This document shows positions 25,824-50,684 of a DNA stretch of 50,850 nucleotides, piece after piece. The translations under genes and the position numbers were made by a program. Each line of letters starts with the position of its first letter. Within the stretch, counting starts at the first letter, position 1. The stretch comes from Minisyncoccia bacterium (GTDB taxonomy: Bacteria > Patescibacteriota > Minisyncoccia > UBA6257 > JAAZHW01). Where the stretch lies: positions 1 to 50,850 of the forward strand of contig JBFEPE010000004.1 of the NCBI GenBank assembly GCA_041550235.1, read 5' to 3'. The notes under the pieces were generated by a model, which saw only the letters and a list, made by a program, of their open reading frames with translations, was not told the origin of the DNA and did no database searches.

Positions 25824-25908
25824 CGCCCGCCGAAGTTTTAACGAAGGCAGGTCTTATATTATTCCCCTCTAATAGAGGGGTGGTCAGCCTTTGGCTGGAC
25901 GGGGTGTT
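25824..25908. repeat. Mosaic GC-rich element (module E plus composite hairpin element, copy 1)
   Basis: 25824-25851 is CGCCCGCCGAAGTTTTAACGAAGGCAGG. 25864-25880 is CCCCTCTaatAGAGGGG. 25885-25897 is CAGCCtttGGCTG. 25898-25908 is GACGGGGTGTT. Confidence 0.85.
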
Positions 25909-25962
25909 TTTTTGCTTACTGCACCTTATTGTGCCACATTATACCACAACTTATCATTATAT

Positions 25963-25991
25963 AAAAAAGGATGTCGCCCGAAAGCGACATC
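25963..25991 (-). terminator. Intrinsic terminator of ruvX
   Basis: GATGTCGC-tttcgg-GCGACATC followed by a U-tract on the minus strand. Confidence 0.7.
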
Positions 25992-26012
25992 AATTGCCAA
26001 ATATCAATATTC

Positions 26013-26438
26013 TTAAAACTTATCTGATAAATAATTATCTAATATAATGGCGGCGGAGTGGCTATCTAAATACTCCCCCACCCCTTTTATATTATCTCCT
26101 CCCAAACTATCAATCAATGATTGGCGGTCCATTCTCGCCTGAGAAGAAGAAAATGCCTCGCTTATAAATTCAATTGGCAAATCTATTTTCTCACCTAATT
26201 TTTTTCCAAAAACCTCAGCTGACAGAGATGATTCAGTTGGCTCGCCCTCATTAGAAAGAGGAAGTCCAATAATTATTTTCTCTATTTTCTCGTTCTGACA
26301 AATATCCTTGATTTTATTTAAGACAAGTTCTTCTTTTTTATATTTTAGCACATCATAAGGAGCAGATATTTTTGAATCACTATCAGCCATCGCCAACCCA
26401 ATTTTCCTTTTTCCATAATCAATCCCCAATAATTTCAT
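26013..26438 (-). CDS. ruvX: Putative pre-16S rRNA nuclease / Holliday junction resolvase-like YqgF
   Basis: MKLLGIDYGKRKIGLAMAD; 141 aa. Confidence 0.85.
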   Translation of the reverse strand: MKLLGIDYGKRKIGLAMADSDSKISAPYDVLKYKKEELVLNKIKDICQNEKIEKIIIGLPLSNEGEPTESSLSAEVFGKKLGEKIDLPIEFISEAFSSSQARMDRQSLIDSLGGDNIKGVGEYLDSHSAAIILDNYLSDKF

Positions 26439-26448
26439 ATCTTTAATA

Positions 26449-27024
26449 TTATCTTAAAATAACTTCTAATAATTCAGGGAATTTATTTGTTCCCATATCC
26501 CCCTCCGTATAATGCCCATGATTTTCAAGTTCAATTATTTCTCCATCTAAAAATTGATGAAAAATTTTTATACTCTCTTTGCCTCCCTCTCCCTCATCAT
26601 CAGAAGTAAACATTATTATTTTTTCCACCCTTTCCTTGATTGTTTCATCAATTTGAAAATTATAAAATTTTCTTTTTATCTCATTATCCCCACTTGCTAT
26701 TTTCCAAGGAGCAACAAGAATTAATTTATTTATTTTTCTTTTTGTTTCTCCAAGCCAACGAACTAAAAAAGAGCATCCACAACTATGACCAATTAAAATC
26801 GTATTTTCATTAACCTCGTATTTCTCAAATTCATTTTTGAACTTATCATAATTTGGCTCCCATGGATCTGGCATAAGAGGAGTTTCTGCCTTTATTTCTT
26901 TTTCAGTAAGTTCTTTTTTAATCCAAGGAATCCAGTGCTTATCGTAAGTTCTTGTTTCAGGATTTAATGCTCTTTCTTTATTTGATGGGCATCCATGAAT
27001 AATTATACAATTTTGATTTTTCAT
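26449..27024 (-). CDS. Alpha/beta serine hydrolase, YdeN/RBBP9-like
   Basis: IIIHGCPS, nucleophile elbow GHSCG, C-terminal HGHY. Confidence 0.6.
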   Translation of the reverse strand: MKNQNCIIIHGCPSNKERALNPETRTYDKHWIPWIKKELTEKEIKAETPLMPDPWEPNYDKFKNEFEKYEVNENTILIGHSCGCSFLVRWLGETKRKINKLILVAPWKIASGDNEIKRKFYNFQIDETIKERVEKIIMFTSDDEGEGGKESIKIFHQFLDGEIIELENHGHYTEGDMGTNKFPELLEVILR

Positions 27025-27035
27025 ATATATTATCT

Positions 27036-27299
27036 TTATTCTGAAACAGCCATTATTACTTCATTGGCGATATCAGAAACATTAGAAATATCAACTTTCT
27101 CACTGCCATATTTCCCCCTTAGTCCTTGTAATAACTCATCAGCATAAGAAGGGGTCAATACTTCCACTCCTGAAAAGTCTAAAATCACATTGTCTTTCTC
27201 GGCAGATCCATTAACAATTTGAGCGATTCGTAAAAAATCCTCCCTGCCCGCAGGTCGGCCATTAAGAACAGTATTGAATTTTGACATTTGAATAATCAT
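27036..27299 (-). CDS. STAS-like (DUF4325-like) small protein
   Basis: ILDFSGVEVLTPSYADELL is typical of DUF4325. Confidence 0.5.
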   Translation of the reverse strand: MIIQMSKFNTVLNGRPAGREDFLRIAQIVNGSAEKDNVILDFSGVEVLTPSYADELLQGLRGKYGSEKVDISNVSDIANEVIMAVSE

Positions 27300-27344
27300 A
27301 TTTTAATAAGTTTTTTGTTTTAATTACAAATTTAATATCGCCGA

Positions 27345-28166
27345 CTAATTTGATATACTGCTTTCTCTTCTATATAGAGAAGAAAGGGATTTTGGGAGGC
27401 TGGTGCTACCAATTCCATCTCTTGAAATTCCTCCGTGGAAATAATCAACTGGCACACTTGAAAATCCCTTTGCTGAAACAACAATATGGTCTAATAAATC
27501 AATCCCTAAAATCTTTCCTGCTTGAACCAACTGAGCGGTGATTCCAATATCTTCTGATGTTGGCTTGGAATTGCCCGATGGATGATTATGGGCAATAATC
27601 ACAGCAACTGCAGAATACTCAAAAGCAGGTCTAAAAACTTCTCTTGGGTGAACGATATTAGTTGTGAGGGTTCCGACAGATATCACCTCATCATGAACTA
27701 ATTGATAACGACTATTAAGATAGAGCCCTCTTAATTGTTCCTTGGGCATTTCTCTCATATCACTTAAATAATTATAAACTTGCTTAGCATTCCTAATGAT
27801 TGTTTGCCTGCCATTTTTCTTTTGAAAAAATCTTCTTCCCAATTCAAAAGTGGCAACTATTTGACAAGCCTTTGATTCAGAAATATTCAATTCCTTTTCT
27901 AATGTTTTTGGATTTTTCTCATTACAAATATTTTTCTCGCCATATTCCTTTAATATTCGTGATGACATAGCTAAGACATCTTCCTTTTTTGTCCCAACAC
28001 CCAAAATAATAGCCAAAAGTTCCTGAGAGCATAAGCCCTCCGGACCGCCCTTGATGAGCCTTTCCCTTGGTCTATCGCTTGTCTCAATATCCTTCATAGA
28101 CAAAGAATAATCTTTATCTGATTTATCAACAACTAAAACATTTTCCTTTATTTGATATTTTTTCAT
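27345..28166 (-). CDS. radC: RadC-family JAB-domain protein
   Basis: HhH-like N-terminus and the JAMM motif IIAHNHPSG. ATG start MKKYQIK is preferred over the TTG of the ORF track. Confidence 0.85.
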   Translation of the reverse strand: MKKYQIKENVLVVDKSDKDYSLSMKDIETSDRPRERLIKGGPEGLCSQELLAIILGVGTKKEDVLAMSSRILKEYGEKNICNEKNPKTLEKELNISESKACQIVATFELGRRFFQKKNGRQTIIRNAKQVYNYLSDMREMPKEQLRGLYLNSRYQLVHDEVISVGTLTTNIVHPREVFRPAFEYSAVAVIIAHNHPSGNSKPTSEDIGITAQLVQAGKILGIDLLDHIVVSAKGFSSVPVDYFHGGISRDGIGSTSLPKSLSSLYRRESSISN

Positions 28167-28404
28167 ATTAATAAATAACTTTAAATATAAGAAGGGGTAA
28201 TAGTAATAACTCAATATTTCTTAATTTAAAGTAAAAAATTAAATAATTTCCTGTATAGGAAAATTATTTATGAATATCGACATTAAATTTGAGATTATAT
28301 CCCTCAAAAAGCCAAATCCAATAATTAGTCATATATTGGCACTTTTGAAAAAAAAATCAAGTTCAAGCATTTGACTGCTTAAATTTATTCTCAGTAGAAG
28401 ACCC

Positions 28405-28641
28405 TCAAGTCTTATTGTCGCCTCCAGATTCTAATTCACTTGCATCATCTCCCTTACTCATTCCCGAACCATAATCGTAAGATCCTTTTTGGTCTGAGAG
28501 GTTTCTGAATGTCTGCTCGTGGAATTCAAACATATTAAATTGCTTGCAATTGCGACACTTTATTTCAATAAGACCATTTTTTAAATTGCCCTTGAAAAAA
28601 AGTTTGTTGCAATATTTGCATCTGTAATCTTGTAGATCCAT
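28405..28641 (-). CDS. Com-like zinc-finger protein
   Basis: RCKYCNKLFFKG...IEIKCRNCKQFN matches the phage Mu Com-type CxxC...CxxC finger. Confidence 0.55.
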   Translation of the reverse strand: MDLQDYRCKYCNKLFFKGNLKNGLIEIKCRNCKQFNMFEFHEQTFRNLSDQKGSYDYGSGMSKGDDASELESGGDNKT

Positions 28642-28695
28642 ATTTTTTCTAATTAAAACTGCGGGATAGATTATTTTTTAATCTCCTCTATTATC

Positions 28696-28797
28696 TTTTG
28701 CTTTTAGCCCTTTATTACTATTTCAGCCCCTCTACCCCCCCCCCGCCGAAGGCGGGGGGGGTAGTATTATTTGATTTTTTTGCTTTTAGCCCTTTAT
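28696..28797. repeat. GC palindrome (28732-28764) bracketed by a perfect 21-bp direct repeat
   Basis: TTTTGCTTTTAGCCCTTTATT occurs at 28696-28716 and 28777-28797. The palindrome is CTAC(C10)GCC-gaa-GGC(G8)TAG. Confidence 0.9.
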
Positions 28798-28967
28798 TTA
28801 ATTATACCAAACCCTCATAAAGATTTTATCAATTTTCCATAAATTTCTCATCAACTTTTTATTTCAAAAAAATATAATGCCTATGCATGCCTCCCTCAAA
28901 TTACAACTTTACCTTTTTATCTCTTGCATCAAATTAAATGGAAAACAAAAAAGCATCATAAAAGCAA

Positions 28968-29016
28968 ACCTCCCCCGCCTAGCCCCTGACTTGCAGGGAA
29001 CTGGGCGGGGGGGGGT
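28968..29016. repeat. Nested GC element downstream of pnp
   Basis: CCTCCCCCGCC...GGCGGGGGGGG encloses the inner hairpin CCCTGacttgCAGGG. Confidence 0.85.
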
Positions 29017-29081
29017 TGTTTTATTCTAAACGATTCTAAATCAAAGTGATAAATCAAAATTAATCTATCTAAAAACTTAAA

Positions 29082-31244
29082 CTAAAAATTCTTGAATTTT
29101 CTATCACTTCTCTTATTCCTCCTCTTTAAATCAACAACTTCAGCAGAACCATTATTCTCTATCATCGCCTTCATTGAAAGAGACAATCTGCCATCTTCAA
29201 CACGAATAACTTTTACCTTCACTTTCTGCCCAACCTTCAATGCATCCTCAACTTTTTCCGTCCGACTATGAGATATCTCAGAAATATGAACCATCCCATC
29301 TTGATATGGGTCCAATTGAACAAATGCCCCGAAGTCCATTATCTTCACAACTTCCCCTTCAACAATATCACCCACCTTATATTCCTTCGTCATATCCTCA
29401 ATCATTTTAATTGCCCTATCAACTCCCTCACTTTCTAACCCGGTAACAAAGATTGAGCCATCATCATCAATATCAATTTCTGTTTTTGTTTTTTCCATAA
29501 TATCCTTGATTGTTTTTCCACCCGAACCAATCACCATCCCAATCTTATCAGGATCAATTTTTGTAGAAGATATTTTTGGAGCAAAAGGAGATAATTCCTT
29601 TCTTGGCTCCTTTATCGTCTCTTCTATTTTTTCAATAATTTTTAATCTAGCATTTTTCGCTTGCTCTAATGTCTTCTCAATCATTTCCAATGTAATGCCC
29701 TTTATCTTAACATCTAATTGACAAGCAGTTATTCCATCTCTCGTCCCAGCAATCTTCAAATCCATATCGCCATAGTGATCTTCTGGTCCTTGAATATCAG
29801 TGAGAACCTTATATTCATCATTTTTTCCCAATATCAACCCCATCGCAATTCCAGCGACTGGCTTTTTAATAGGCACACCAGCATCCATAAGAGCCAAAAC
29901 AGAACCGCAAGCGGATGCCATTGATGACGAACCATTTGATGATAAAATTTCGGAAACAACCCGAATTGTATAAGGAAATTCGCTCTTATTAGGAATGATT
30001 GGCAAAAGCGCTTTCTCTGCCAATGCTCCATGTCCAATCTCTCTTCTGCCGGGACCCCTCATTGGCCTTGCTTCTCCAACTGAAAATGGAGGAAAGTTGT
30101 AATGATGAATAAAGTTTTTCTCTCCGGAAAATTCAATATTTTCAATAGTCAATCCCCTCCCCGGCGAAGCAAGGGTGATGTTTGATAAGGCATGAGTGAG
30201 TCCTCTCATAAATAATCCTGACCCATGAACCCTCTTTGGCAAAACATCTACCTCGCAATATATCTCCCTTATCTCATCCAATTTTCTTCCATCAGGTCTT
30301 TTCTCAGATTCCAATATATTTTTTGAAACAATTTTCCCAATTTCTTCTTCCATAATATTCATTGCATCCTTTATCAAATCACTTTTTTCTTGTCCAACGA
30401 GCCACTCCTTCAATTCAAATTCTACATCCCTTAAGTCGTCTTTCATTTTTTGTTTTTGCCCAGCATATATTGCTTTTTCTAATCCCTTTTCTTTCAAAAA
30501 ATTAATCACTTCGTTTTTAAATCCTACATTCTCAACTATATTAATTTCTTTTTTATCTATTCCTATTTCGGAAACGATTTTTCTTTGCCATTCATTTATT
30601 TTTTCCGCTTCATTTATCGCCATTTCCATTGATTCCACTATTTCTTTTTCAATTGCCTCATCCGTTCCAACCTCTATCATATTTATTCTTTTATCAATCA
30701 CACTGGCAAAAACATCAAAATTATTTTTTTCTCTCTCTTCATAAGTAGAATTCACTTTCAACTGATTATTCTCATCTTTCCCAATTCTTAATCCTGAAAT
30801 AGGACCACCCCAAGGGATGTCTGATGTTGCCAACGCTAATGAAGCGGCCGTTAGTGCCACAAAATCTGGATCATTAGCATCATCAATTGATAAGACAGAG
30901 AGGACTATTTGAACCTCACTTCTTAATCTGTCATCAAACAGAGGACGAAGAGTTCGGTCTATCAATCGCCCTGTGAGAATGGCATTATCAGTTGGACGAT
31001 TTTCTCTTCTAATAAATCTACTGCCTAATATTTTTCCAACGGCATAAAATTTCTCAGAGTATTCAACTGTGAGAGGGAAATAATCAAGCCCTTCTCTTTC
31101 CTCTCCCATTGTTGCAGTTGCTAAAACGGTGGTTTCTCCATATTGAACTAATACGGAGCCATTTGTTTGAGGTGCTAAATCAGAAAAAGTTGCCTTTAAC
31201 TGTCGCCCACCTACCTCAATAGTATATTCTTTTTCTTTTTTCAT
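29082..31244 (-). CDS. pnp: Polyribonucleotide nucleotidyltransferase (PNPase)
   Basis: Two RNase PH domains plus KH and S1 (GDIVEGEVVKIMDFGAFV). Start set at MKKEKEY because the longer ORF runs through the GC palindrome at 31281-31309. Confidence 0.95.
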   Translation of the reverse strand: MKKEKEYTIEVGGRQLKATFSDLAPQTNGSVLVQYGETTVLATATMGEEREGLDYFPLTVEYSEKFYAVGKILGSRFIRRENRPTDNAILTGRLIDRTLRPLFDDRLRSEVQIVLSVLSIDDANDPDFVALTAASLALATSDIPWGGPISGLRIGKDENNQLKVNSTYEEREKNNFDVFASVIDKRINMIEVGTDEAIEKEIVESMEMAINEAEKINEWQRKIVSEIGIDKKEINIVENVGFKNEVINFLKEKGLEKAIYAGQKQKMKDDLRDVEFELKEWLVGQEKSDLIKDAMNIMEEEIGKIVSKNILESEKRPDGRKLDEIREIYCEVDVLPKRVHGSGLFMRGLTHALSNITLASPGRGLTIENIEFSGEKNFIHHYNFPPFSVGEARPMRGPGRREIGHGALAEKALLPIIPNKSEFPYTIRVVSEILSSNGSSSMASACGSVLALMDAGVPIKKPVAGIAMGLILGKNDEYKVLTDIQGPEDHYGDMDLKIAGTRDGITACQLDVKIKGITLEMIEKTLEQAKNARLKIIEKIEETIKEPRKELSPFAPKISSTKIDPDKIGMVIGSGGKTIKDIMEKTKTEIDIDDDGSIFVTGLESEGVDRAIKMIEDMTKEYKVGDIVEGEVVKIMDFGAFVQLDPYQDGMVHISEISHSRTEKVEDALKVGQKVKVKVIRVEDGRLSLSMKAMIENNGSAEVVDLKRRNKRSDRKFKNF

Positions 31245-31280
31245 ATTTTTTATATTTATATTTATATTTTTGTCGTGCCT

Positions 31281-31309
31281 ATCCTCCCCCGCCGTAGGCG
31301 GGGGAGGAT
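31281..31309. repeat. GC-core perfect palindrome (13-bp arms)
   Basis: ATCCTCCCCCGCC-gta-GGCGGGGGAGGAT. Confidence 0.9.
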
Positions 31310-31467
31310 TCATGATTAAATATTCTATATATCTATATTCTATTTTTTTATATCAAAAAGTCAAAGATTATTAAATTCATTTACATTATTTTTTGAAAAT
31401 AAAAAAAGACCTGCGCAATCACTTTCTGCAATTGGAGGTCTTAATCAATAGACGATCATCCGCTCTT

Positions 31468-32112
31468 TTATTGTTTTTTTACCAACCTCTTAACTTTGTC
31501 AAGGCCAAACCTCTCCCAAAAAATCTCATCGGAGCCGGGAAAGGCGACAGCGGGAGGAAAATTAACTACCCATAGTTCCTTAAAATTTTTCCCTAAAAAT
31601 GGATTAATTTCAGAAATCCAACCGAGAATATTTTTGATTAAAACACCGACTCTCATCCGCTTATTGCTTATTACCCTCTGCTCAAACCCATGGATAATAT
31701 GAGGGCAATGCCCAAGAAGCTCAGAATAATCTTCAGGGAAACATTTAAAATCTTTGAGGTCATATCTAGATAAATAATCTGCAGAATCATCCTTATCCGT
31801 CATCCTCCCTGGCGCCTCATCTTCCTTGTGCTGAATATAAAGATTTATATACCAATTTACTCGCACCTCCTCGCTAACATAATAATCGTCTTCGCATAAA
31901 GTCATTTTGACAATTAGACTTTTTTCTTTTAGACGAAAAAATAATGATGTAATTCTACCAATTGTAACCGGAATATAATAATCTTTCCCTTCTTCAGTAC
32001 TTATTTGAACCATGGCAATAAATTCAAACCCATTCCCTATCATTTTCTCCTTGACTTTTTCAAAATACTTTTTGCCCGTTAATTGTTTTAATGTTTTTTT
32101 GCTTGCCATCAT
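31468..32112 (-). CDS. Hypothetical protein
   Basis: 214 aa ORF with strong RBS TAGGAGGTattATG; no recognised motif. Confidence 0.55.
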   Translation of the reverse strand: MMASKKTLKQLTGKKYFEKVKEKMIGNGFEFIAMVQISTEEGKDYYIPVTIGRITSLFFRLKEKSLIVKMTLCEDDYYVSEEVRVNWYINLYIQHKEDEAPGRMTDKDDSADYLSRYDLKDFKCFPEDYSELLGHCPHIIHGFEQRVISNKRMRVGVLIKNILGWISEINPFLGKNFKELWVVNFPPAVAFPGSDEIFWERFGLDKVKRLVKKQ

Positions 32113-32188
32113 AATACCTCCTAAAATTATTTTTATTATATTTTCTTTTTTTAATTCAGGGTGAATTTACCATCCGAAATCCAAATAC

Positions 32189-32217
32189 ATCATATCACAC
32201 ATCTTTACAGATGTCAA
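32189..32217 (-). promoter_or_regulatory. Sigma70-type promoter with TGTGA-extended -10
   Basis: Minus strand TTGACA-N17-TATGAT. Confidence 0.5.
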
Positions 32218-32313
32218 TAGTGATGCGGGAGACACGAATATTGATTAAAATTAAAATTGTGGTATTATTGGGATATTGATTTTTGAATAAATAAATATAT
32301 AATCAAATAAACT

Positions 32314-32502
32314 ATGAAAATTGCGAAATTAAGTTCTTTTTTAAAAGAAGTGAGAGTTGAATTCAAGCATGTAAATTGGCTCACAAAAAAGGAAGTAACA
32401 AATTACACAATTATCGTGATTGTTTTCTCATTAGCATTAGCCCTATTCTTAGGATTGTTTGACTTTATATTCAACTTCGCATTAGTAGAATTTGTGTTTT
32501 AA
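32314..32502 (+). CDS. secE: Preprotein translocase subunit SecE
   Basis: 62 aa with EVRVEFKHVNWLTKKEV followed by a single TM helix. Located upstream of nusG. Confidence 0.8.
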   Translation: MKIAKLSSFLKEVRVEFKHVNWLTKKEVTNYTIIVIVFSLALALFLGLFDFIFNFALVEFVF

Positions 32503-32526
32503 TATAATAAAAACTTTCTCCGGCAA

Positions 32527-32568
32527 CCTGTCCGCCTTTGGCGGACTTTGGCGGACGGGAATGACAGG
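32527..32568. repeat. GC-rich element with one left arm and two tandem right arms
   Basis: GTCCGCC-tttg-GCGGAC-tttg-GCGGAC, plus an outer CCTGTC/GACAGG pair. Confidence 0.8.
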
Positions 32569-32609
32569 AAAAAAACAAATATCTTATTTCATAATAAAAA
32601 CAAAAAAAT

Positions 32610-33182
32610 ATGGAAGAAAAAAATAATAAAAATGATGAAAAAAAAGAATTGCCAGCAGGTAAATACTGGTATGCAATTCACACCTATTCCGGCTATGAAG
32701 ATGCCGTCGCAAGATACTTGAAACAAAGAGTAGAATCTTTGGATATGGGCGACAAAATTTTCAATGTAATAGTTCCAAAAGAAAAGAAAATCAAAATAAA
32801 GGGTGGTAAAAAACATACCATTGAGGAAAAAATATACCCCGGCTATGTTATGGTAGAAATGATATTGGCAGAAGATTCATGGTATGTCGTCCGAAACACC
32901 CCTCATGTTACCGGCTTTATTGGAGCAGACTCAACAATGCCATCACCACTTGGAGATGCTGAAGTAGATGAATTATTGGGAAAGATGAAGCCAGAAGAAC
33001 CAAAATATCTGATTGATTTGGAAGTGGGCGATATTATAAAGATAACGGATGGTCCATTCAAAGACCATGATGGTAAGGTGAGTGAAATGGATGAAGCAAA
33101 TTCAAAAGTAAAGGTCTTAGTCACGATCTTTGGAAGAGAAACCCCCGTGGAATTAGATTTCTTTCAAGTAAAGAAGATATAG
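32610..33182 (+). CDS. nusG: Transcription termination/antitermination factor NusG
   Basis: WYAIHTYSGYE (NGN domain), C-terminal KOW GDIIKITDGPFKDHDGKV. Confidence 0.9.
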   Translation: MEEKNNKNDEKKELPAGKYWYAIHTYSGYEDAVARYLKQRVESLDMGDKIFNVIVPKEKKIKIKGGKKHTIEEKIYPGYVMVEMILAEDSWYVVRNTPHVTGFIGADSTMPSPLGDAEVDELLGKMKPEEPKYLIDLEVGDIIKITDGPFKDHDGKVSEMDEANSKVKVLVTIFGRETPVELDFFQVKKI

Positions 33183-33199
33183 TAAATAAGACAATGCTA

Positions 33200-33230
33200 T
33201 CAGCCCCCCCGCCTACGGCGGGGGGGCTGA
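33200..33230. repeat. GC-core perfect palindrome (14-bp arms) between nusG and rplK
   Basis: TCAGCCCCCCCGCC-tac-GGCGGGGGGGCTGA. Confidence 0.9.
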
Positions 33231-33270
33231 AGATAAACTATTCACAATCCAAAAAAATATACTTAAAAAT

Positions 33271-33690: not shown

Positions 33691-33722
33691 AAATTTATCC
33701 ATTTAAATATCTTTTTCAAAAA

Positions 33723-42886: not shown

Positions 42887-42934
42887 ATTTTTTTGTTTAT
42901 TATATCACAACTTTAATTATTGCCTATGAAAGGA

Positions 42935-42969
42935 AACCCGCCTTCGTCAAGACTTCGGCGAGGCAAAGC
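42935..42969. repeat. Module E (reverse orientation)
   Basis: The reverse complement GCCTCGCCGAAGTCTTGACGAAGGCGGG matches 50054-81 at 26/28 positions. Confidence 0.8.
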
Positions 42970-43010
42970 AAAAATAGGGCTTGCTTCTTTGATGATTAGC
43001 TCGCCCTATT
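42969..43010 (-). terminator. Intrinsic terminator of the DUF2769-like gene
   Basis: AATAGGGC-22 nt-GCCCTATT with a U-tract on the minus strand. Confidence 0.5.
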
Positions 43011-43034
43011 TTATTACTCAAAAAAATCCATTTC

Positions 43035-43262
43035 CTATTCTTCTTCTGCCCCTACCTCGCAATAATATCCAGAAGTTAGATTGCTTTTCTTATGGACAGG
43101 ACAACCTCCGCAAATACAACCCATTTTCTTGAAGTCGCAAGATGATTTTCCCTTTGCACAATAGAGGCCTTCGCCTCCACCCCTCATACACTCATCAAAT
43201 GAAGGGCATCCCGGGCAAGCACAATTGCTTAGATTCTCCTGATTATCTTCAACTTTATTCAT
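43035..43262 (-). CDS. Small cysteine-rich protein (DUF2769-like)
   Basis: 75 aa with 12 Cys, including CACPGCPSFDEC and CICGGCPVH. Confidence 0.5.
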   Translation of the reverse strand: MNKVEDNQENLSNCACPGCPSFDECMRGGGEGLYCAKGKSSCDFKKMGCICGGCPVHKKSNLTSGYYCEVGAEEE

Positions 43263-43359
43263 AAATTATATATCATCGTCGGGCGATTCTATATTAAGCC
43301 GACAATATCATTTTACACTATTATTTATAAATAACAAAATTAAAAATTGCCAATACAAG

Positions 43360-43383
43360 ACAACCACCCCGCGGGGTGGTTGT
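43360..43383. repeat. GC-core perfect palindrome (12-bp arms, no spacer)
   Basis: ACAACCACCCCG/CGGGGTGGTTGT. Confidence 0.9.
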
Positions 43384-43417
43384 CAGAGTATTATCTTAAA
43401 TCACTAATAGCAAAATA

Positions 43418-44155
43418 TTATTTTAATTCTGATTCTTTTTCTTTATCATCTTCTTTTTTATCATTATCATTATCATTATCATTATCATTCTCTACTTCTA
43501 CATCTTCTTTTTCAGCCACCACCTCCTCTTTCTCTGCTTCTGCATTTTCTTTCTCCACTACATCATCACTGGCATTATCGCCATTGCCATCCCCTTCTTT
43601 TTCGTCTTCACTGATTTCAGCATCATCTACTTTTAATTCCTCGCCGTTATCATTCTTTGATTCTTCATCGGAATTATTTTCTACCACATCTTCTGACTTT
43701 TCCACGGTATTATCTGCGACATCATCATCAGCAGTCAAAGATTCATCTTTTACCTCCTCTGTCTCCACCTCAATCTTTGGCTCAACAATAGGAGAAATAA
43801 CTTCTTTGAAGACGGATAATTTTCTCTTGATTTTCTTTGGAGAAAGATTTCTCAAGAAATAAAGTTTGGCTCGCCTCACCTTGGATGCACGAACAATCTC
43901 AATTTTTGAAATCTTTGGTGAATGAATTGGCCATATTTTCTCTACTCCAACTCCTGCAATTACTGCCCTTACCGTCATTGTAGCAGGAAGATTTTTGCCG
44001 TGCTTTATCGCCAAAACAATTCCTTCAAAAACCTGGATTCTTTCTTTATCTCCTTCTTTTATTCTCTCATGAACCCTTATCTTCATTCCGGGTCTTATTT
44101 CGGGAATATCATCCTTCTGCTGCCTCTTATTAAATTCAATTATAGTGTTATTCAT
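43418..44155 (-). CDS. rplS: Ribosomal protein L19 with ~130-aa acidic C-terminal extension
   Basis: RPGMKIRVHERIKEGDKERIQVFEGIVLAIKH is typical of L19. The tail is D/E-rich and includes DNDNDNDND. Confidence 0.9.
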   Translation of the reverse strand: MNNTIIEFNKRQQKDDIPEIRPGMKIRVHERIKEGDKERIQVFEGIVLAIKHGKNLPATMTVRAVIAGVGVEKIWPIHSPKISKIEIVRASKVRRAKLYFLRNLSPKKIKRKLSVFKEVISPIVEPKIEVETEEVKDESLTADDDVADNTVEKSEDVVENNSDEESKNDNGEELKVDDAEISEDEKEGDGNGDNASDDVVEKENAEAEKEEVVAEKEDVEVENDNDNDNDNDKKEDDKEKESELK

Positions 44156-44220
44156 AATAATACTACTATACTAATAGAAAAATATTATTTAGCAATAGTG
44201 AGATTATAGTATTTTGTTTT

Positions 44221-46125
44221 TTACTCGCCTTTATCATTGCCAGCATTATTCTCCCCCTTATTTTCTTCTGATGGACTATTGTCGCTATCGCCTTGTGAAG
44301 GAGACTCGTTATTACTACCACCCGCCTGCTTATACATTTTCTCTCCAATCTTTGAAATCGCCTGTGAAAGAGATTCCTTTCTTTCCTTAATTTTATTAGA
44401 ATCATCACCATTAAGTGCATCCTTCAAATCATTTATTTTTGTCTCAATATCTTGTCTATCTTCGGCAACAATCTTATCTCCCCCATCCCTCATCGTCTTT
44501 TCCGCCAAATATAATAACTGCTCTGATTGATTTTTTACCTCAATCAACTCCTTCTTTTTCTCATCCTCACTAGCATGAATTTCTGCATCCTTTTTCATCT
44601 TTTCTATTTCCTCGTTTGAAAGACCAGTAGATGCTTCTATCCTCACGGACTGCTCCTTTCCGCTTGCCTTATCCTTTGCAGAAACATTTAAAATTCCATT
44701 AGCATCAATATCAAAAACAACCTCCACCTGAGGAACTCCTCTTGGTGCCGGAGGAAGCCCATCTAAAATAAATCTCGCTAGTGTTTTGTTATCACTCGCC
44801 ATCTGCCTTTCTCCTTGAAGAATATGAATTTCTACTTGTGTTTGATTATCAGCCGCAGTAGAAAACACCTGGCTTTTTGAAGCTGGAATAGTAGTATTTT
44901 TTTCAATCAACTTTGTCGCCACTCCTCCCAATGTCTCAATTCCCAATGATAATGGAGTCACATCCAAAAGAAGAACATCTTTCACATCTCCTTGCAAAAC
45001 ACCCCCTTGGATGGCTGCCCCCATAGAAACAACCTCATCAGGATTAATTTCCTTATTTGGCTCTTTTCCAAAAAATTCCTTAACTGCATTTATAATAGCC
45101 GGCATCCTTGTTTGCCCCCCAATCAAAATAATCTCATTTATATCCGATTTTGAAAATCCTTTTTCCTTTATTGTTTCTTCCATCAACTTTATTGAGCGAT
45201 CAATCAAATCTTTTGTGATGTCTTCTAATTTTGCTCGGCTAAGTTTCATTTCAAAGTGCTTTGGACCAGAAGAATCTGATGTGATGAATGGCAAATTAAT
45301 TTCCGCCTCCATCATTGTAGAAAGCTCATGCTTCGCCCTCTCGGCTGAATCTCTTAATCTCTGAATTGCCAAAGAATCCTCTGATAAATCTATCCCCTGA
45401 GACTTTTTAAATTCAGAAATTAAATAATCCATTATTCTTTGATTGAAGTCATCTCCTCCCAAATGCATATCACCACCCGTTGCCTTCACCTCAACGGTAT
45501 CTTCAGAAATTTCCAAAACAGAAATATCAAATGTTCCCCCTCCAAAATCATAAACAACCACCCTTTCATCTTTTTTCTTATTCAAGCCATAAGACAAGGC
45601 GGCCGCAGTTGGCTCATTTATTATTCTCTTCACCTTAAATCCCGCGATTTCGCCGGCATTTTTGGTTGCCTGCCTTTGGCTATCATCAAAGTATGCTGGA
45701 ACGGTGATGATTGCCTCCTCTATTTTTTCTCCTAACTTTTCTTCGGCATCTAACTTTAATTTTTGAAGAATCATTGCAGAAATTTCCTCTGGCTTCTTCC
45801 AATCCTCGCCCATTTTCACCTCAATACCTCCTGTTGATGATTTTCTTGTCTCAAATGGAAATGATTTTATATCTTTCTGAACATCTTCATCATCAAATCT
45901 TTGCCCAATAAATCTCTTTACTGAATATATTGTATTTTTTGGATTTGTTACTGATTGTCTTTTTGCTAAAACACCGGCTAATCTTTCGCCATTTTTTGCT
46001 ATTGCGACAACAGAAGGAGTTGTCCTTTCTCCCTCTTTATTTTCAATTATTTTTGCTTCACCAGAAATAACAGCCGCCATTGCTGAATTAGTTGTCCCCA
46101 AATCAATTCCTAATATTTTACTCAT
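44221..46125 (-). CDS. dnaK: Molecular chaperone DnaK (Hsp70)
   Basis: [17 protein letters not shown] and 634 aa. Confidence 0.97.
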
Positions 46126-46188
46126 AATTTTTATTTATTTCGCCCAATCCCCTCTTTTTAAATAATAAAAAGCGAGGAAAAAACTTTT

Positions 46189-46410
46189 TTATTTTTCATT
46201 ATGATCTTTAAAATTATCAACTTCTAATTTCTGCTCTCTGTCCATTCTCGCCCTATCTCTTCTTTGCAAAAATATTCCCAGCAATCCAAAAACAAATGAT
46301 ACAAGCAGGGTTATTAAAAATTGATAATTATTTTTTATAAATTCTATTATTGCATTATCCATATTTTTTAAATATATAGGCTTATATATGAGATAAGTTG
46401 ACTTTATCAC
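46189..46410 (-). CDS. Small membrane protein between grpE and dnaK
   Basis: One TM helix FLITLLVSFVFGLLGIFL; start uncertain. Confidence 0.35.
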   Translation of the reverse strand: MIKSTYLIYKPIYLKNMDNAIIEFIKNNYQFLITLLVSFVFGLLGIFLQRRDRARMDREQKLEVDNFKDHNEK

Positions 46411-46502
46411 CCCCCCCGCCTTCGGCGGCGGGGGATTATTCCCCTCTTATAGAGGGGTGGTCCAGCCCCTGTCCGCAGGGGCTGGGACGGGGTGTTCCTC
46501 TC
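46406..46502. repeat. GC palindrome plus composite hairpin element (copy 2)
   Basis: 46406-46437 is CCCCCCCGCC-ttc-GGCGGCGGGGG. 46441-46502 is CCCCTCTtatAGAGGGG TGG TCCAGCCCCtgtccgcaGGGGCTGG GACGGGGTGTTCC. Confidence 0.85.
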
Positions 46503-46503
46503 T

Positions 46504-46980
46504 TTATAATTCCCTAACCTCAACTCTTGATGGCCTTATTATTTTCCCATTTAATTTATATCCCTTTTGTATTTCTCTTCCTATAATATCTCCTGAGCCC
46601 GCCATTGCCTCATGTATTTCTGGATTAAAATCGCTTCCTTCTTCTACCTTTATTTCCTCCAATCCTTTTTGCCTCAAAACATTTTCAATCTGAGACTTTA
46701 TCATTTTTATACCCTTTATTATATCGTCTTTTTTTGAATCATCCCCTTCCCCTATCTTAGATAAAGATTCTATTGCCATATCAAAACTATCTAAAACGGA
46801 AAGCATTTCAAATATTAATTCTTCATTGGCAAATTTTAAAATTTGCTCTATTCTCTTATCTGATTCTTTTTGATGATTTATAAAGTCTGCTTTTTGTCTT
46901 TTCCAGCCATCTAAATAATCATCTCTTTCTTTTTTTAATTCAGTTATCTCTTTTTTTAGTTTTTTTATTTCGTTTTTCAT
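46504..46980 (-). CDS. grpE: Nucleotide exchange factor GrpE
   Basis: Coiled-coil N-terminus, RQKADFINHQK, C-terminal GYKLNGKIIRPSRV. Confidence 0.9.
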   Translation of the reverse strand: MKNEIKKLKKEITELKKERDDYLDGWKRQKADFINHQKESDKRIEQILKFANEELIFEMLSVLDSFDMAIESLSKIGEGDDSKKDDIIKGIKMIKSQIENVLRQKGLEEIKVEEGSDFNPEIHEAMAGSGDIIGREIQKGYKLNGKIIRPSRVEVREL

Positions 46981-46993
46981 GTTTTTTTACTTT

Positions 46994-47053
46994 GCCTCGC
47001 CACGTAAAAAATTGCTTCGCAATTTCAACGTGGCTGGGACGGGGTGTTCTCCT
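46994..47053. repeat. Composite hairpin element (copy 3) abutting the hrcA stop codon
   Basis: GCCACGT-22 nt (inner AATTGCttcGCAATT)-ACGTGGC then TGGGACGGGGTGTTCTCCTC. Confidence 0.85.
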
Positions 47054-47755
47054 CTAATCAATCATTAAATCAGAAAGTGCTTCTAATACTGCCAAATTTC
47101 TATCGTAGAGCATATTCTTTGGTCCCAACAATAGAAAAACCCCTCTTCTTTTTGGCAATGAATAAAATCTTGAGACTAAACTCAAATTCTCGCTTTTCGT
47201 GATAGGACTTTCCTTACCAATAAAGACAATTCTCTCAAATTCGCCGAAATCATCAAAGAAATTTTCTAATTGATTGTCTAAAAACTCAATATCATCAAAA
47301 ACTTTCTTTATCTCTTTTTTTTCTAAATCCGGCAAGCCAAAAAACAAACTACTCATTCCTGATTTTGAAATTCCTGTATCAAAATCATAATAAACACCTA
47401 ATCCCCTACAAAATCTTGAAATAATTTCACTCGGCTCAAAATTTGATACTTCATTTTTTTCCCTTATCTTTTCCGACCACCTACTTGATTCCTTATTTAA
47501 TTTCCCTTCGTTTTCAATAAATCTATTTACAAACCAGCGATATGCTTTATCAGTAGGAATCCTGCCCGCCGAAGTATGAGGTTGCTCTAAATAGTCAGAA
47601 TTTGATAAAAGAGATAGCTCGCTTCTTATTGTTGCTGGGCTTAATTCCGAAAATAATTTTTCAGCTAATTCTAATGAGCCAATAGGCCGTTCATTTTTGG
47701 CGAATTCTCTTATAATAAATTCTAATATTTTATTTTGTCTTTCTGATAATTCCAT
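47054..47755 (-). CDS. hrcA: Heat-inducible transcription repressor HrcA (short form)
   Basis: MELSERQNKILEFIIREFAKNERPIGS wHTH N-terminus; operon position; CIRCE upstream. Confidence 0.8.
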   Translation of the reverse strand: MELSERQNKILEFIIREFAKNERPIGSLELAEKLFSELSPATIRSELSLLSNSDYLEQPHTSAGRIPTDKAYRWFVNRFIENEGKLNKESSRWSEKIREKNEVSNFEPSEIISRFCRGLGVYYDFDTGISKSGMSSLFFGLPDLEKKEIKKVFDDIEFLDNQLENFFDDFGEFERIVFIGKESPITKSENLSLVSRFYSLPKRRGVFLLLGPKNMLYDRNLAVLEALSDLMID

Positions 47756-47778
47756 ATCTTCTATTCCATATTACAAAA

Positions 47779-47805
47779 TTAGCACTCCCTCGTCAAGAGT
47801 GCTAA
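47779..47805. promoter_or_regulatory. CIRCE operator (HrcA binding site)
   Basis: Perfect TTAGCACTC-N9-GAGTGCTAA, 24 nt upstream of the hrcA start. Confidence 0.92.
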
Positions 47806-47847
47806 TTTTTTTTAATAAGCAACAAAAATCACAATAAATAAATTCTC

Positions 47848-48957
47848 CTACTTCTTTTTTCTAAGAAAGGCGGGGATATCTAAACTATCATCCTTATTAT
47901 TATTACCATCATCCGAAATCGAAATAGAAGGATGCCCCCCATTATTATCACCATTTGAATCGCCCAAAAATGTTTGCTGTTTCTCAACTGACTTATATCC
48001 AGAAAATCCTGCCGCCACAATCAAAACCCTTATCTCCCCCTTCTTTATCTTAGAATCCTCAGAAATACCGGGTATAATCTTAGCATGGGGATCAACCATC
48101 TCCCCAATCATCTTGGCCGCTTCATTTATCTCAACCATTTTCAAATCACCATCCTTCCCACTAAAAGACAGCAATATCCCCCTCGCTCCTTGTGGAGATA
48201 TTTCAAACAGCGGAGAATTAACTGCTTTTTGAAGGGCATCCACTGCTCTATCTTCGCCCTCAGAAACCCCAATTCCGATGATTGCCATTCCGGCATCTTT
48301 CAGTACTGCTTTAATATCAGCAAAATCGGTGTTAATAATTCCCGGCTTATTTATCAAATCCGCTAATCCCCTCACAGACTGGGTTAATATCTCATCAATT
48401 GCCAAAAATGCGGCTTGAAGAGTTGTGTCTTTTTCAATAATATTAAAAATTCTATCATTTGGAATTATGATATATGAATCAACTTGTCCCTGAAGTTTGG
48501 CAAGTCCCTCTTCGGCAATTTCCATTCTCCTACTCCCCTCAAATAAAAATGGTTTTGTAACAACAGAAACGGTAAGAATGCCCAAATTTCTAGCAATTTC
48601 GGCAACAACTGAAATTGCCCCTGTTCCTGTGCCACCACCCATTCCCGCTGCCAAGAATATCATATCTGCACCTTTAAGGGCTTCCTCTATTTGAGCCCTT
48701 GATTCTTCAGCTGCCTGACGACCAACTTCCGGGTCCATTCCGGCACCCAATCCTTTTGATATATTTTTGCCAATATGAATTTTATTCCTCACTCCTGTCT
48801 TATGAAGGTCTTGAACATCTGTATTCAGTGCAATTAATTCAACTCCTCGCATTTGATTGCGATTCATACGAGCTAAGATATTGCCTCCCGCTCCTCCAAT
48901 TCCGACTACTTTAATTTTGGCAAAGCTTTCCAATGTTGGACTTTTTACTTTTGGCAT
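47848..48957 (-). CDS. ftsZ: Cell division protein FtsZ
   Basis: GGGTGTG tubulin signature, VVGIGGAGGN. Confidence 0.97.
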   Translation of the reverse strand: MPKVKSPTLESFAKIKVVGIGGAGGNILARMNRNQMRGVELIALNTDVQDLHKTGVRNKIHIGKNISKGLGAGMDPEVGRQAAEESRAQIEEALKGADMIFLAAGMGGGTGTGAISVVAEIARNLGILTVSVVTKPFLFEGSRRMEIAEEGLAKLQGQVDSYIIIPNDRIFNIIEKDTTLQAAFLAIDEILTQSVRGLADLINKPGIINTDFADIKAVLKDAGMAIIGIGVSEGEDRAVDALQKAVNSPLFEISPQGARGILLSFSGKDGDLKMVEINEAAKMIGEMVDPHAKIIPGISEDSKIKKGEIRVLIVAAGFSGYKSVEKQQTFLGDSNGDNNGGHPSISISDDGNNNKDDSLDIPAFLRKKK

Positions 48958-49019
48958 ATTTATATTTTCTTTAATTTAAAAATTTATGATGACTTTGACC
49001 GCAAAATAAATTGTATCAT

Positions 49020-49045
49020 TGCCCCCCCGCCTACGGCGGGGGGCA
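49020..49045. repeat. GC-core palindrome in the ftsZ leader
   Basis: TGCCCCCCCGCC-tac-GGCGGGGGGCA. Confidence 0.85.
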
Positions 49046-49091
49046 GAAAAATTATTAACACATCAAAGCAATTATCAGATAATTCTATCTT

Positions 49092-49120
49092 ATCATAATC
49101 TTTTAATCCACTATTGACAA
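49092..49120 (-). promoter_or_regulatory. Candidate ftsZ promoter
   Basis: Minus strand TTGTCA-N17-TATGAT. Confidence 0.4.
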
Positions 49121-49187
49121 TTTTGTCTGATTATGATGTTTTAATTTAACAGGTGTTATTTTTTATTTCAAAAACATGTTCATAGTC

Positions 49188-49234
49188 AAAAATAATATCC
49201 CCCCGCCCACAATGGGCGGGGGGATATTATTTTG
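49188..49234. repeat. GC-core perfect palindrome with 21-bp arms extending into AT-rich flanks
   Basis: AAAATAATATCCCCCCGCCCA-caa-TGGGCGGGGGGATATTATTTT. Confidence 0.9.
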
Positions 49235-49260
49235 TGTAAATTTAAAAAAATGTATCAAAT

Positions 49261-49668
49261 CTATTTCTCATCTGTCGTCTCATCAGAAGGAGCCATCTCA
49301 TTATTTTCTAAATCATCGCCCTCTTTTTTCTTGTCTTTCTCATCAACATCAGCATCAACGCTAACATCAACACTCAAATTCTTATTGGGCAAATCCAACT
49401 CTTCGCCTGTCTCCACTTTCTTGATAATGCTTTCCAACTTCCATTTCTTATCCTTTGATATTGGGCGGGATTGTGAAATCTCAACGAAGTCGCCAATTCT
49501 TGCCTCATTTTTCTCATCATGAGCTTTAAATTTTTTACTAATCCTCACTCTTTTCTTATATCGTGGATGTTCTGCTAATCTATCAACCTTAATAACGATG
49601 GTCTTATCCATCTTGTCGGAGACTACTACTCCCTTTAATTTCTTAATTGTCTTTCGCTTATTTTCCAT
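49261..49668 (-). CDS. rpsQ: Ribosomal protein S17 with acidic C-terminal extension
   Basis: [20 protein letters not shown]...[19 protein letters not shown]. Start placed at MENKRK; an alternative ATG lies at 49686. Confidence 0.85.
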
Positions 49669-49715
49669 ATTGATAGTATATAACATTATGTTTAATTAAT
49701 ATATAATTTTTCTCT

Positions 49716-49746
49716 CATACCCCCGCCCCGAAGGGGCGGGGGTATG
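49716..49746. repeat. GC-core perfect palindrome (14-bp arms) between rpmC and rpsQ
   Basis: CATACCCCCGCCCC-gaa-GGGGCGGGGGTATG. Confidence 0.9.
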
Positions 49747-49766
49747 TTTGCTTAATTTATTTATTA

Positions 49767-49946
49767 TTAACCTCTCATAGCAGTTAAGATTCTTGCAATC
49801 TTTTTCTTCAAGAATCTAATCTGCCTCACATTCTTTATCTTGCCAAAAGCCAAATCAAAACGAAGACCGCGAAGTTCTTTGCGACTATCTTCTAAGTCCC
49901 GTGCCAACTCATCACTTTGTTTATTTTTCACATCATCTTTCTTCAT
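49767..49946 (-). CDS. rpmC: Ribosomal protein L29 (59 aa, below the ORF-track cutoff)
   Basis: Hand translation: MKKDDVKNKQSDELARDLEDSRKELRGLRFDLAFGKIKNVRQIRFLKKKIARILTAMRG. Position is immediately upstream of rpsQ. Confidence 0.8.
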   Translation of the reverse strand: MKKDDVKNKQSDELARDLEDSRKELRGLRFDLAFGKIKNVRQIRFLKKKIARILTAMRG

Positions 49947-50053
49947 GTTTATATAGTTAATTATAGTTTATTTATTTATTAATATTTTGCAATATGTATC
50001 TGGCATTATGCATATAATCTCCGCAAATCAATTCCTACCAATATCACTCCCTC

Positions 50054-50081
50054 GCCTCGCCGAAGTTTTAACGAAGGCGGG
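50054..50081. repeat. Module E
   Basis: GCCTCGCCGAAGTTTTAACGAAGGCGGG; also present at 25824-25851 and, reversed, at 42935-42969. Confidence 0.8.
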
Positions 50082-50086
50082 CACCC

Positions 50087-50114
50087 TTGACAAATTATTT
50101 TTATATTTTATAAT
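50087..50114 (+). promoter_or_regulatory. Sigma70-type promoter
   Basis: TTGACA-N16-TATAAT, then AGGAGGtgaaaATG. Confidence 0.6.
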
Positions 50115-50131
50115 CTTGGAAGGAGGTGAAA

Positions 50132-50443
50132 ATGAAAACAACAAGTGCAAGTAATTGGAAATTCAGAGATTATTGGGAATTATTTATCGTTCACAGGGAC
50201 TTTTTTGAGTCCAAGCATGACCTTAAATTTCCCCTTGGTAAGGACGATCAAAAAATAAGAGAATCTTATTGGACATACGGGGAATGTATCAAAAGATTCA
50301 AAGAGTTAAAACATTTTATTGCAACAAACAACCGAATAATCCTAAATGCCTATGTACTTACCCCCAAAATGAAAGAAATAAACATTTTAAAAGTTGGGGT
50401 CGTTAAAAGGGTTTTAAGATTTGTAAGATTCATTTTCTGCTAA
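50132..50443 (+). CDS. Hypothetical protein
   Basis: ATG 5 nt after AGGAGG. 103 aa; no recognised motif. Confidence 0.55.
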   Translation: MKTTSASNWKFRDYWELFIVHRDFFESKHDLKFPLGKDDQKIRESYWTYGECIKRFKELKHFIATNNRIILNAYVLTPKMKEINILKVGVVKRVLRFVRFIFC

Positions 50444-50457
50444 TTAACTAATGCCAA

Positions 50458-50506
50458 AGACGGTCGCTTTGCTTGATTTAAAAGCAAGGTGGCTGTCTCT
50501 TTTTTA
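50458..50506 (+). terminator. Intrinsic terminator (plus-strand specific)
   Basis: 17-bp stem AGACGGUCGCUUUGCUU/AAGCAAGGUGGCUGUCU with four G-U pairs that form only in the plus-strand RNA, then CUUUUUU. Confidence 0.7.
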
Positions 50507-50544
50507 TTTATTATTTTTAATGTTGCAGAAAAACGGAGATTTTG

Positions 50545-50684
50545 CCTTTGGCAAACCCGCCTTCGCCAAGGCAGAATGTCCGCCTATGGCGGGCTACGGC
50601 GGGCGAGGAAAAACACCCCGTCTCAGCCACGTTGAAATTGCGAAGCAATTTCTTTCGTGGAGAGCCACCCCTCTATTAGAGGGG
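50545..50684. repeat. Array of GC-rich modules, including composite hairpin element copy 4
   Basis: TTGCCtttGGCAA; ACCCGCCTTCGCCAAGGCAG; GTCCGCCtatgGCGGGCtacgGCGGGC; GAGGAAAAACACCCCGTCTCAGCCACG...CGTGGAGAGCCACCCCTCTattAGAGGGG. Confidence 0.85.

Follow-up and report, generated by a model that had tools for sequence, protein, structure and literature searches.

A two-hairpin repeat in a Minisyncoccia contig, probably a REP-like DNA palindrome tied in other genomes to DUF559 nuclease genes

Introduction

Does a short hairpin repeat that recurs in a stretch of Minisyncoccia DNA act as RNA, read out with the genes beside it, or as DNA? The stretch in question (assembly GCA_041550235.1, contig JBFEPE010000004.1, positions 1 to 50,850; hereafter the window, 50,850 nucleotides in all) carries four copies of an element built on the plan ACACCCCGTC-variable stem-loop-CCACCCCTCT-nnn-AGAGGGGAAT, the second hairpin being missing from copy 3. 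A preliminary description of this DNA, made from the letters of the window, took the first view and proposed either an RNA element of the 3′ untranslated region (3′ UTR) or a small mobile RNA-level module. Comparison with copies in other genomes leads us to the second view: the window copies are probably short interspersed DNA palindromes resembling repetitive extragenic palindromes (REPs), of a kind found in many phyla and tied elsewhere to a nuclease gene of the DUF559 family.

Results

Structure of the repeat unit

The 11-mer AACACCCCGTC, which forms the 5′ module of the unit, occurs exactly 4 times in the window against 0.11 expected, a count reached in 0 of 100 shuffles, and the palindrome CCCCTCTnnnAGAGGGG, which forms hairpin 2 of copies 1, 2 and 4, occurs 3 times against 0 expected. 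These counts bear out the earlier claim of four real copies with a conserved 5′ flank and 3′ hairpin, and a reading of the sequence likewise agrees that copy 3 is missing its 3′ module (hairpin 2). A covariance model (R1) was then built from a seed alignment of 32 sequences. The consensus unit is (A)ACACCCCG-TC, followed by hairpin 1 (any sequence, always paired), (G)CCA, hairpin 2 (CCCCTCY-loop-RGAGGGG) and AAT. The string CCCCGTC is read in all four window copies, and the head CGTC is found in 259 of 497 model hits, the remainder being variants such as CGCC or CGGT; the CCA tail shows no variation in the seed alignment and is carried by window copies 1, 2 and 4.

Hairpin 1 combines conserved pairing with free choice of letters. 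In the seed set, three of its pairs occur with all four Watson–Crick types and 0 of 32 sequences are unpaired; the covariation score of 0.33 compares with 0.06 in shuffles, and slid registers fall to ~50% paired. The same outcome was obtained for a second set of 120 distinct copies, gathered via the neighbouring protein gene and hence independently of the element's own sequence, with the qualification that their alignment was fitted to the model and so somewhat favours the structure. Among these 120, a stem of 5 bp is commonest (range 1-8, mostly 2-6), the loop measures 3 nt in 102 copies, and the second pair is AU in 49, CG in 45, UA in 14 and GC in 8. Hairpin 2 is nearly invariant in the same set, its outer five pairs being essentially fixed while two inner pairs switch between C-G and U-A with 0-2 failures. 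Across ~1320 stem positions of the 120 copies, 5 G·T pairs were counted versus 11 A·C mismatches. The stems are Watson–Crick on both strands, a pattern more in keeping with a DNA palindrome than with an RNA transcribed from a single strand. All window copies also fold into the proposed hairpins as single-stranded DNA, with z-scores of -4.1 to -7.0. A hammerhead-like three-way junction around GUC was considered and rejected on reading the sequence: CCA and AAU stand at the junctions in place of CUGAUGA and GAAA, and there is no conserved closing stem.

Distribution and arrangement

Exact matches to the 3′ module CCACCCCTCTNNNAGAGGGGAAT (20 specified bases) lie at no fewer than 115 loci in species-representative genomes versus ~1 expected, the expectation being our own estimate for 596 Gb with one genome per species. 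The matches listed fall in Verrucomicrobiota, Planctomycetota, Bacteroidota, Patescibacteria, Bacillota, Cloacimonadota, Fibrobacterota and other phyla, and include Verrucomicrobiales, Planctomycetia, Paceibacteria, a termite-gut Bacillota metagenome-assembled genome (MAG), Aminicenantes, Fibrobacteria and Ignavibacteria; the cultured carriers among them include Pedobacter, Flavobacterium, Chryseobacterium and Cloacibacterium, for instance Pedobacter psychrotolerans, Flavobacterium sufflavum and Cloacibacterium rupense. Also among the matches listed, the 5′ module CACCCCG stands just upstream in 128 of 138 3′-module matches, and hairpin 1 is 8-58 nt long. Since these lengths are not confined to multiples of 3, the conservation is not a coding constraint. 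A repeated peptide (NTPS..HPSxRGE, or SPLxEGW..DGV inside open reading frames, ORFs) was rejected as such a constraint on the same ground, and because the element occurs in both orientations. Viral contigs gave only 3 matches, and phages are not an obvious vector. Rfam 15 gave no hit in the window at the gathering score, and with E relaxed to 1-10 the window end and five related loci likewise produced no match of relevance; a search of open-access literature by sequence strings returned only unrelated primers.

Taking the genome loci listed together with the window, 122 of 253 copies stand alone. Neighbouring copies no more than 150 nt apart form 38 head-to-head pairs, most with gaps of 25-36 nt, as well as 28 tail-to-tail pairs and 7 in tandem, and inverted doublets within one spacer account for about half of the copies. 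The element is thus found solo or as inverted doublets, with near-invariant sequence outside hairpin 1 across many phyla.

Cassettes with a DUF559 nuclease gene

Clustering of the ORFs at these loci (at least 115) revealed DUF559 as the sole ORF family that recurs in unrelated taxa between inverted copies. The recurring ORF is assigned by Pfam to PF04480 (DUF559) with E down to 1e-31, and NCBIfam offers only the name 'DUF559 domain-containing protein'. Neither a Y1 transposase nor any other recurrent enzyme was found near the repeats by ORF clustering of the listed loci, and a crude search for GIY-YIG motifs over 1.08 Mb of loci gave no such ORF; the window and the Patescibacteria relatives yielded no GIY-YIG gene either. 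Characteristically, one inverted pair of copies brackets a DUF559 gene of ~125 aa with a Vsr-like PD-(D/E)XK fold. The predicted DUF559 structure (pLDDT 90) matches PDB 3HRL, the I-Bth0305I catalytic domain and Vsr, and the residues E, D, H, K and D are invariant in the DUF559 alignment.

The association was also followed in reverse, by scanning metagenome contigs with an alignment of seven element-linked DUF559 proteins and peptide patterns inside the DUF559 domain. All 80 loci recovered hold model hits (244 hits in 252 kb), and in 59 of the 80, all from this element-linked subfamily, an antisense copy lies directly upstream of the gene and a sense copy directly downstream, at median gaps of 29 and 19 nt. 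In the Bacillota MAG WRCD01, for example, the order is secA stop, antisense copy 2884-2927, DUF559 2923-3303 and sense copy 3312-3351; empty doublets with spacers of 22-31 nt are common in this MAG, and the DUF559 ORF fills exactly such a spacer beside secA. The G+C fraction of the DUF559 genes is 0.25-0.54, usually below that of the host, the host background being 27-64%.

The two arms of a cassette are related in hairpin 2 more than in hairpin 1. Specifically, hairpin 1 is identical in only 4 of 32 cassettes, and the hairpin 2 variant agrees in 23 of 32 (shuffle mean 11.4, maximum 20). The hairpin 2 variant also weakly tracks DUF559 protein similarity, the observed value being reached in 14 of 2000 permutations. 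Between left and right arms there is a tendency only, with a median hairpin 1 length of 13 versus 9 nt.

Some cassettes are of interest for gene calling and allelic variation. An entire cassette at locus L094 (3001-3528), made up of two antisense copies, the DUF559 gene and two sense copies, is embedded in frame within a 1261-aa ORF that resembles a type IIG restriction-modification enzyme, the element being translated stop-free as SPLxEGW..DGV or TPS..HPSxRGE. Gene callers run DUF559 ORFs upstream through the antisense copy (L197, 6001-6441, and many others), which accounts for annotated DUF559 lengths of 145-200 aa against a domain of ~125 aa. Two Hainich groundwater contigs (L122 and L130) represent alleles of one locus, with elements differing in number and placement around the same DUF559 gene.

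The window copies and their turnover between relatives

The copies in the window are set out in Table 1. The preliminary description had placed them at the right sites, and the limits of the units have been corrected here; its statement that copies 2 and 3 begin 1-3 nt past a stop codon did not survive, the actual distances being 7 nt (copy 2) and 5 nt (copy 3). Covariance model R1, run with filters off, found no further copies in the window. Copy 2 follows the grpE stop codon and precedes a small conserved ORF that is itself upstream of dnaK, and copy 3, without hairpin 2, occupies most of the hrcA-grpE spacer.

Table 1. Positions of the four repeat copies and of adjoining signals in the window. 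The 5′ module is AACACCCCGTC and hairpin 2 is CCCCTCTnnnAGAGGGG; parts are given in the direction of the element, with R1 denoting the covariance model.
Feature	Position	Strand	Parts	Score or remark
Copy 1, full unit	25861..25908	-	5′ module 25908-25898; hairpin 1 CAGCC-aaa-GGCTG(A) 25897-25884; CCA 25883-25881; hairpin 2 CCCCTCT-att-AGAGGGG 25880-25864; AAT 25863-25861	R1 59.7 bits, E = 1e-12 (rough, as are all R1 E-values); DNA fold -11 kcal/mol, z = -4.4
Copy 2, full unit	46438..46496	-	5′ module 46496-46486; hairpin 1 CCAGCCCC-tgcggaca-GGGGCTGG(A) 46485-46461; CCA 46460-46458; hairpin 2 46457-46441; AAT 46440-46438	R1 52.8 bits; fold z = -5.8
Copy 3, truncated	46996..47048	-	5′ module 47048-47038; long hairpin 1 47037-46996	R1 only 15.3 bits
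Copy 4, full unit, long hairpin 1	50612..50687	+	5′ module 50612-50622; hairpin 1 50623-50664, inner stem AAATTGC-gaa-GCAATTT; CCA 50665-50667; hairpin 2 50668-50684; AAT 50685-50687	R1 37.3 bits on the 3′ part; fold z = -6.95
ruvX intrinsic terminator	25970..25991	-	hairpin 25991-25970 and T-run	between ruvX and copy 1
Extended -10 promoter-like site	25938..25965	-	TTTATA-16-TATAAT preceded by TG	between ruvX and copy 1
Terminator of ORF 50126-50443	50458..50498	+	17-pair hairpin and T-run	upstream of copy 4
Unrelated GC-rich hairpin, second repeat family	46406..46433	-	CCCCCGCCGCC-gaag-GGCGGGGGGGG	directly 3′ of copy 2

The nearest relative on record is the Paceibacteria MAG JBFFCO01, whose GrpE is 92% identical. 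At matching sites in this close relative the repeat has changed in several ways. The hrcA-grpE spacer of relative L196 has the same start (...tagaggagAACACCCCGTC), then a different hairpin 1 and an intact hairpin 2, making a full unit, followed by ~130 nt of other GC-rich modules that end GGCGAG-GCAAAGTAAAAAAACATG (GGCGAG-GCAAAG); the junction CGTGGCGAG/GCAAAG in the window would fit a deletion between two GGCGAG repeats. In its grpE-dnaK spacer, copy 2 is absent and a different GC-rich module stands in its place. At the copy 4 site of relative L005, the ~150 nt downstream are near-identical, hairpin 1 is entirely different and the upstream flank is unrelated. These whole-hairpin swaps at matching sites indicate that the apparent covariation among the four window copies is hairpin replacement. 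The covariation suggested earlier for the middle stem therefore stands as a structure conserved family-wide, in both the 32-sequence and the 120-copy sets, but the differences among the window copies themselves reflect replacement of whole hairpins rather than stepwise compensatory change.

In the lineage of the window, then, copies are gained, lost, truncated and exchanged in hairpin 1 between close relatives, the element marks breaks in gene order, and the spacers are mosaics of GC-rich hairpin modules that differ from one close relative to the next. Such turnover supports the mobile or recombining part of the small mobile RNA-level module that had been proposed, but not its RNA level.

Neighbouring genes and transcription signals

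By Pfam, the genes that flank the window copies are ruvX and an EPSP_synthase-family (MurA-like) gene at copy 1, hrcA, grpE and dnaK at copies 3 and 2, and an orphan ORF at copy 4. The co-orientation of each copy with the gene upstream, a main argument for a 3′-UTR element, holds for all four, but terminators intervene for copies 1 and 4. Because these are canonical terminators, both copies lie outside the 3′ UTR of the upstream gene; given the terminator and promoter-like site between ruvX and copy 1, the latter would more likely be situated in the leader of the downstream gene. The orientation bias expected under the earlier proposal did not appear in Patescibacteria (Candidate Phyla Radiation) relatives, where 7 copies run in the same direction as the upstream ORF and 6 in the opposite direction, counts that rest on crude, heuristic ORF calls.

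Other features of the window

The window has ~33% G+C, and its spacers hold many other GC-rich hairpin modules. A second family comprises at least 12 very GC-rich hairpins of the CCCCCGCC-GAAG-GGCGGGGG type at gene ends in the window (positions 7313, 8026, 11887, 14367, 28733, 31279, 33199, 46406, 49017, 49715 and others), which probably act as terminators, many without a clear T-run. Two further GC-rich modules frequently adjoin the repeat studied here: CCGCCTTCGxxAAxxCTTCGGCGxGGC at 25826-25850, 42930-42964 and 50054-50088, and CCCCGCCGAAGGTGGCACATCCGCCTCTGGCGGGCGG at 16125-16161, 19167-19203 and 50560-50596.

The small conserved ORF between grpE and dnaK (window about 46187-46362, minus strand) encodes ~58 aa with a hydrophobic stretch; it is also present in the close relative L196 (6524-6715) and falls below the 80-aa cut-off of the ORF listing. 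On the 3′ side of copy 4, ~150 nt (50688-50840, plus strand) are near-identical on the reverse strand of L005 and end in a hairpin gttttgcc...ggcaaaac with a T-run; this stretch, which has no Rfam match, may encode a small RNA or serve as a conserved leader. Three tandem 40-nt units at 2703-2822, each with an inverted repeat TATTATCATTTA...TAAATGATAATA, occupy the spacer of two minus-strand genes and look like an operator or iteron array.

Discussion

How the repeat may work

If the window copies are REP-like DNA palindromes, the unit would act as folded single-stranded DNA (ssDNA), exposed in replication, repair or DNA uptake. By analogy with the GIY-YIG nuclease Ssn acting on NTS/SRM hairpins and with RAYT transposases acting on REPs, from which this model is taken, DUF559 could recognise the unit via the GTC head, the CCA tail and hairpin 2 and then nick nearby, and the nick could promote copying or recombination of the repeat and of the DUF559 gene's own cassette. 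The copies in the window would be orphan substrates, the nuclease being encoded elsewhere in the genome or lost, and if hairpins in leaders or operon spacers affect the murA, grpE or dnaK mRNAs, they would do so incidentally. We further suggest, more tentatively and with slightly less than even confidence, that a subfamily of DUF559 (PF04480) consists of site- and structure-specific nucleases for a folded ssDNA repeat; it may represent a second fold, unrelated to GIY-YIG, coupled to CGTC-type repeats, and may be the enzyme so far lacking for some members of the CGTC REP superfamily, with a cassette that moves horizontally between phyla ranging from Patescibacteria to Bacteroidota.

Several observations weigh against this account. 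No DUF559 gene was found in the window or in ~90 kb of fetched close Patescibacteria relatives, so that for this lineage the partner is putative. The query proteins of the reverse scan were already element-linked, and the proportion of bracketed genes found there applies to that DUF559 subfamily and not to all of PF04480. A few cassettes are arranged the other way round, tail-to-tail (L057). An RNA-level effect is conceivable, since in the window all four copies run in the direction of local transcription. Finally, the bracketing is equally explained by a selfish DUF559 gene that inserts into pre-existing doublets.

Alternative explanations

The last of these points can be developed into a separate explanation, in which DUF559 is an independent, homing-type selfish gene directed at the spacer of existing inverted doublets, the repeats spread through recombination or another activity, and solo copies such as those in the window are left untouched. 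The gene is indeed placed exactly where empty doublets have a spacer of 22-36 nt, its product matches a homing endonuclease catalytic domain in fold, and its base composition, usually below that of the host, suggests horizontal transfer. However, this explanation leaves the repeats in need of another agent, and no recurrent enzyme other than DUF559 was found near them by the clustering and the crude scan described above; the flank variant and the protein also co-vary, albeit weakly. Moreover, the non-palindromic GTC and CCA and hairpin 2 are extremely conserved across phyla and demand a conserved reader, for which DUF559 is the sole candidate found. We regard the homing-type explanation as unlikely, though it is the chief competitor.

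A role for the repeat as a structured cis-acting RNA that controls 3′-end formation, mRNA stability or translation of the neighbouring gene appears less probable still, and a primary function as an RNA regulator is the least supported. Besides the shared orientation of the window copies with their flanking genes, this explanation can draw on the stable hairpins, on covariation in hairpin 1 and on reports that REPs in other bacteria stabilise mRNA (PMC3733652). Against it stand the want of any Rfam match even at permissive E-values, the terminators before copies 1 and 4, the unbiased orientation in relatives, the common inverted doublets, and G·T pairs that are not favoured over A·C; together these speak against the 3′-UTR element first envisaged. 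In addition, copies are present or absent at matching sites of close relatives beside essential chaperone genes, and the flanking genes are functionally unrelated across loci. Being short, interspersed, multi-copy and variably present between relatives, the repeat also recalls a classical miniature inverted-repeat transposable element (MITE) that depends for its movement on a conventional DDE transposase whose gene lies elsewhere. Yet the single unit lacks terminal inverted repeats (its ends are AACACC... and ...GGGAAT), no target-site duplication was seen and no direct repeat flanks window copies 1, 2 and 4, and no transposase recurs near copies among the loci listed, all of which makes this explanation very improbable.

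Implications

The proposed role of DUF559, if true, would provide a function and a defined substrate for a large family of unknown function, the DUF559 subfamily alone comprising 1965 protein clusters at E <= 1e-25. A second nuclease fold would also join the recently discovered class that pairs hairpin repeats with ssDNA nucleases, which is of interest as a source of tools for cutting ssDNA, and the want of a dedicated enzyme for CGTC-type REPs, noted by Di Nocera et al. (2013), would be addressed. For annotation, the repeat would explain the mosaic spacers of small Patescibacteria genomes, which differ between relatives and coincide with breaks in gene order. Open-access text yielded no literature that describes the present repeat or links DUF559 to repeats, and no follow-up work on Ssn.

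Comparison with known systems

The bracketed protein shares its catalytic fold with I-Bth0305I and Vsr (Foldseek probability 1.00 to 3R3P and 0.96 to 1VSR), whereas the substrate of those two is duplex DNA, bearing either an intron homing site or a T:G mismatch. Neither I-Bth0305I nor Vsr is known to have hairpin repeats on its flanks. With REP/REPIN-RAYT (TnpA-REP) systems, the element has in common that interspersed extragenic palindromes, often inverted doublets, bracket a single-copy enzyme gene, and in both cases the enzyme is proposed to act on folded ssDNA. The systems differ in the head, which is CGTC here rather than GTAG, in the lack of an HUH/Y1 transposase, and in the chemistry of the bracketed protein, which here has a hydrolytic nuclease fold with no known strand-transfer activity.

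The CGTC-tagged REPs described by Di Nocera et al. (2013, PMC3733652) consist of a stem-loop preceded by unpaired CGTC (or TGTC/CCTC) and followed by a CCA tail, and occur mostly as head-to-head dimers; they 'apparently lack a dedicated transposase' and belong to a superfamily that includes Neisseria dRS3 and Rickettsia RPE-4/6 (PMC3733652). The present element agrees in its unpaired CGTC head directly 5′ of the palindrome, its stem-loop and its 3-nt CCA tail, and also in the predominance of head-to-head dimers, the negligible share of tandem pairs and the occasional intragenic copies. It departs from them in stem and loop size (mostly 2-6 bp and 3 nt here, compared with a reported 8-9 bp and 4-5 nt), in showing no A/T preference at the stem base, in its extra conserved hairpin 2 and 5′ leader, and in that tail-to-tail pairs are not rare (28 versus 38 head-to-head).

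Hairpin repeats, namely the NTS of Neisseria (CGTC plus hairpin) and the SRM repeats related to it, are found on either side of the gene for the GIY-YIG nuclease SsnA (Chenal et al. 2025, PMC11893778). This enzyme was shown to bind the hairpin when single-stranded only and to cleave just upstream of it; the C that follows the palindrome and the three bases that precede it are critical (PMC11893778). DUF559 is mentioned in neither PMC3733652 nor PMC11893778. Activity has been shown for SsnA, whereas the DUF559 system is described here from sequence and predicted structure. The partner differs in fold, a Vsr-like PD-(D/E)XK nuclease taking the place of GIY-YIG, and the repeat itself is distinguished by a second near-invariant hairpin and a conserved ACACCC leader; the SRM pattern HGTCWYN(0-2)YYVSBRHN(0-5)WNVSBRGN(0-2)RNCYNB matches 0 of 497 copies and does match the NTS control. 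Despite these differences, both systems have a multi-copy hairpin repeat in which an unpaired (C)GTC precedes the palindrome and a C immediately follows it, and both place a small single-domain nuclease gene between repeats and are spread across phyla. Bracketing is more common in the present case, with 59 of 80 genes flanked on both sides compared with the 42% reported for SsnA (PMC11893778).

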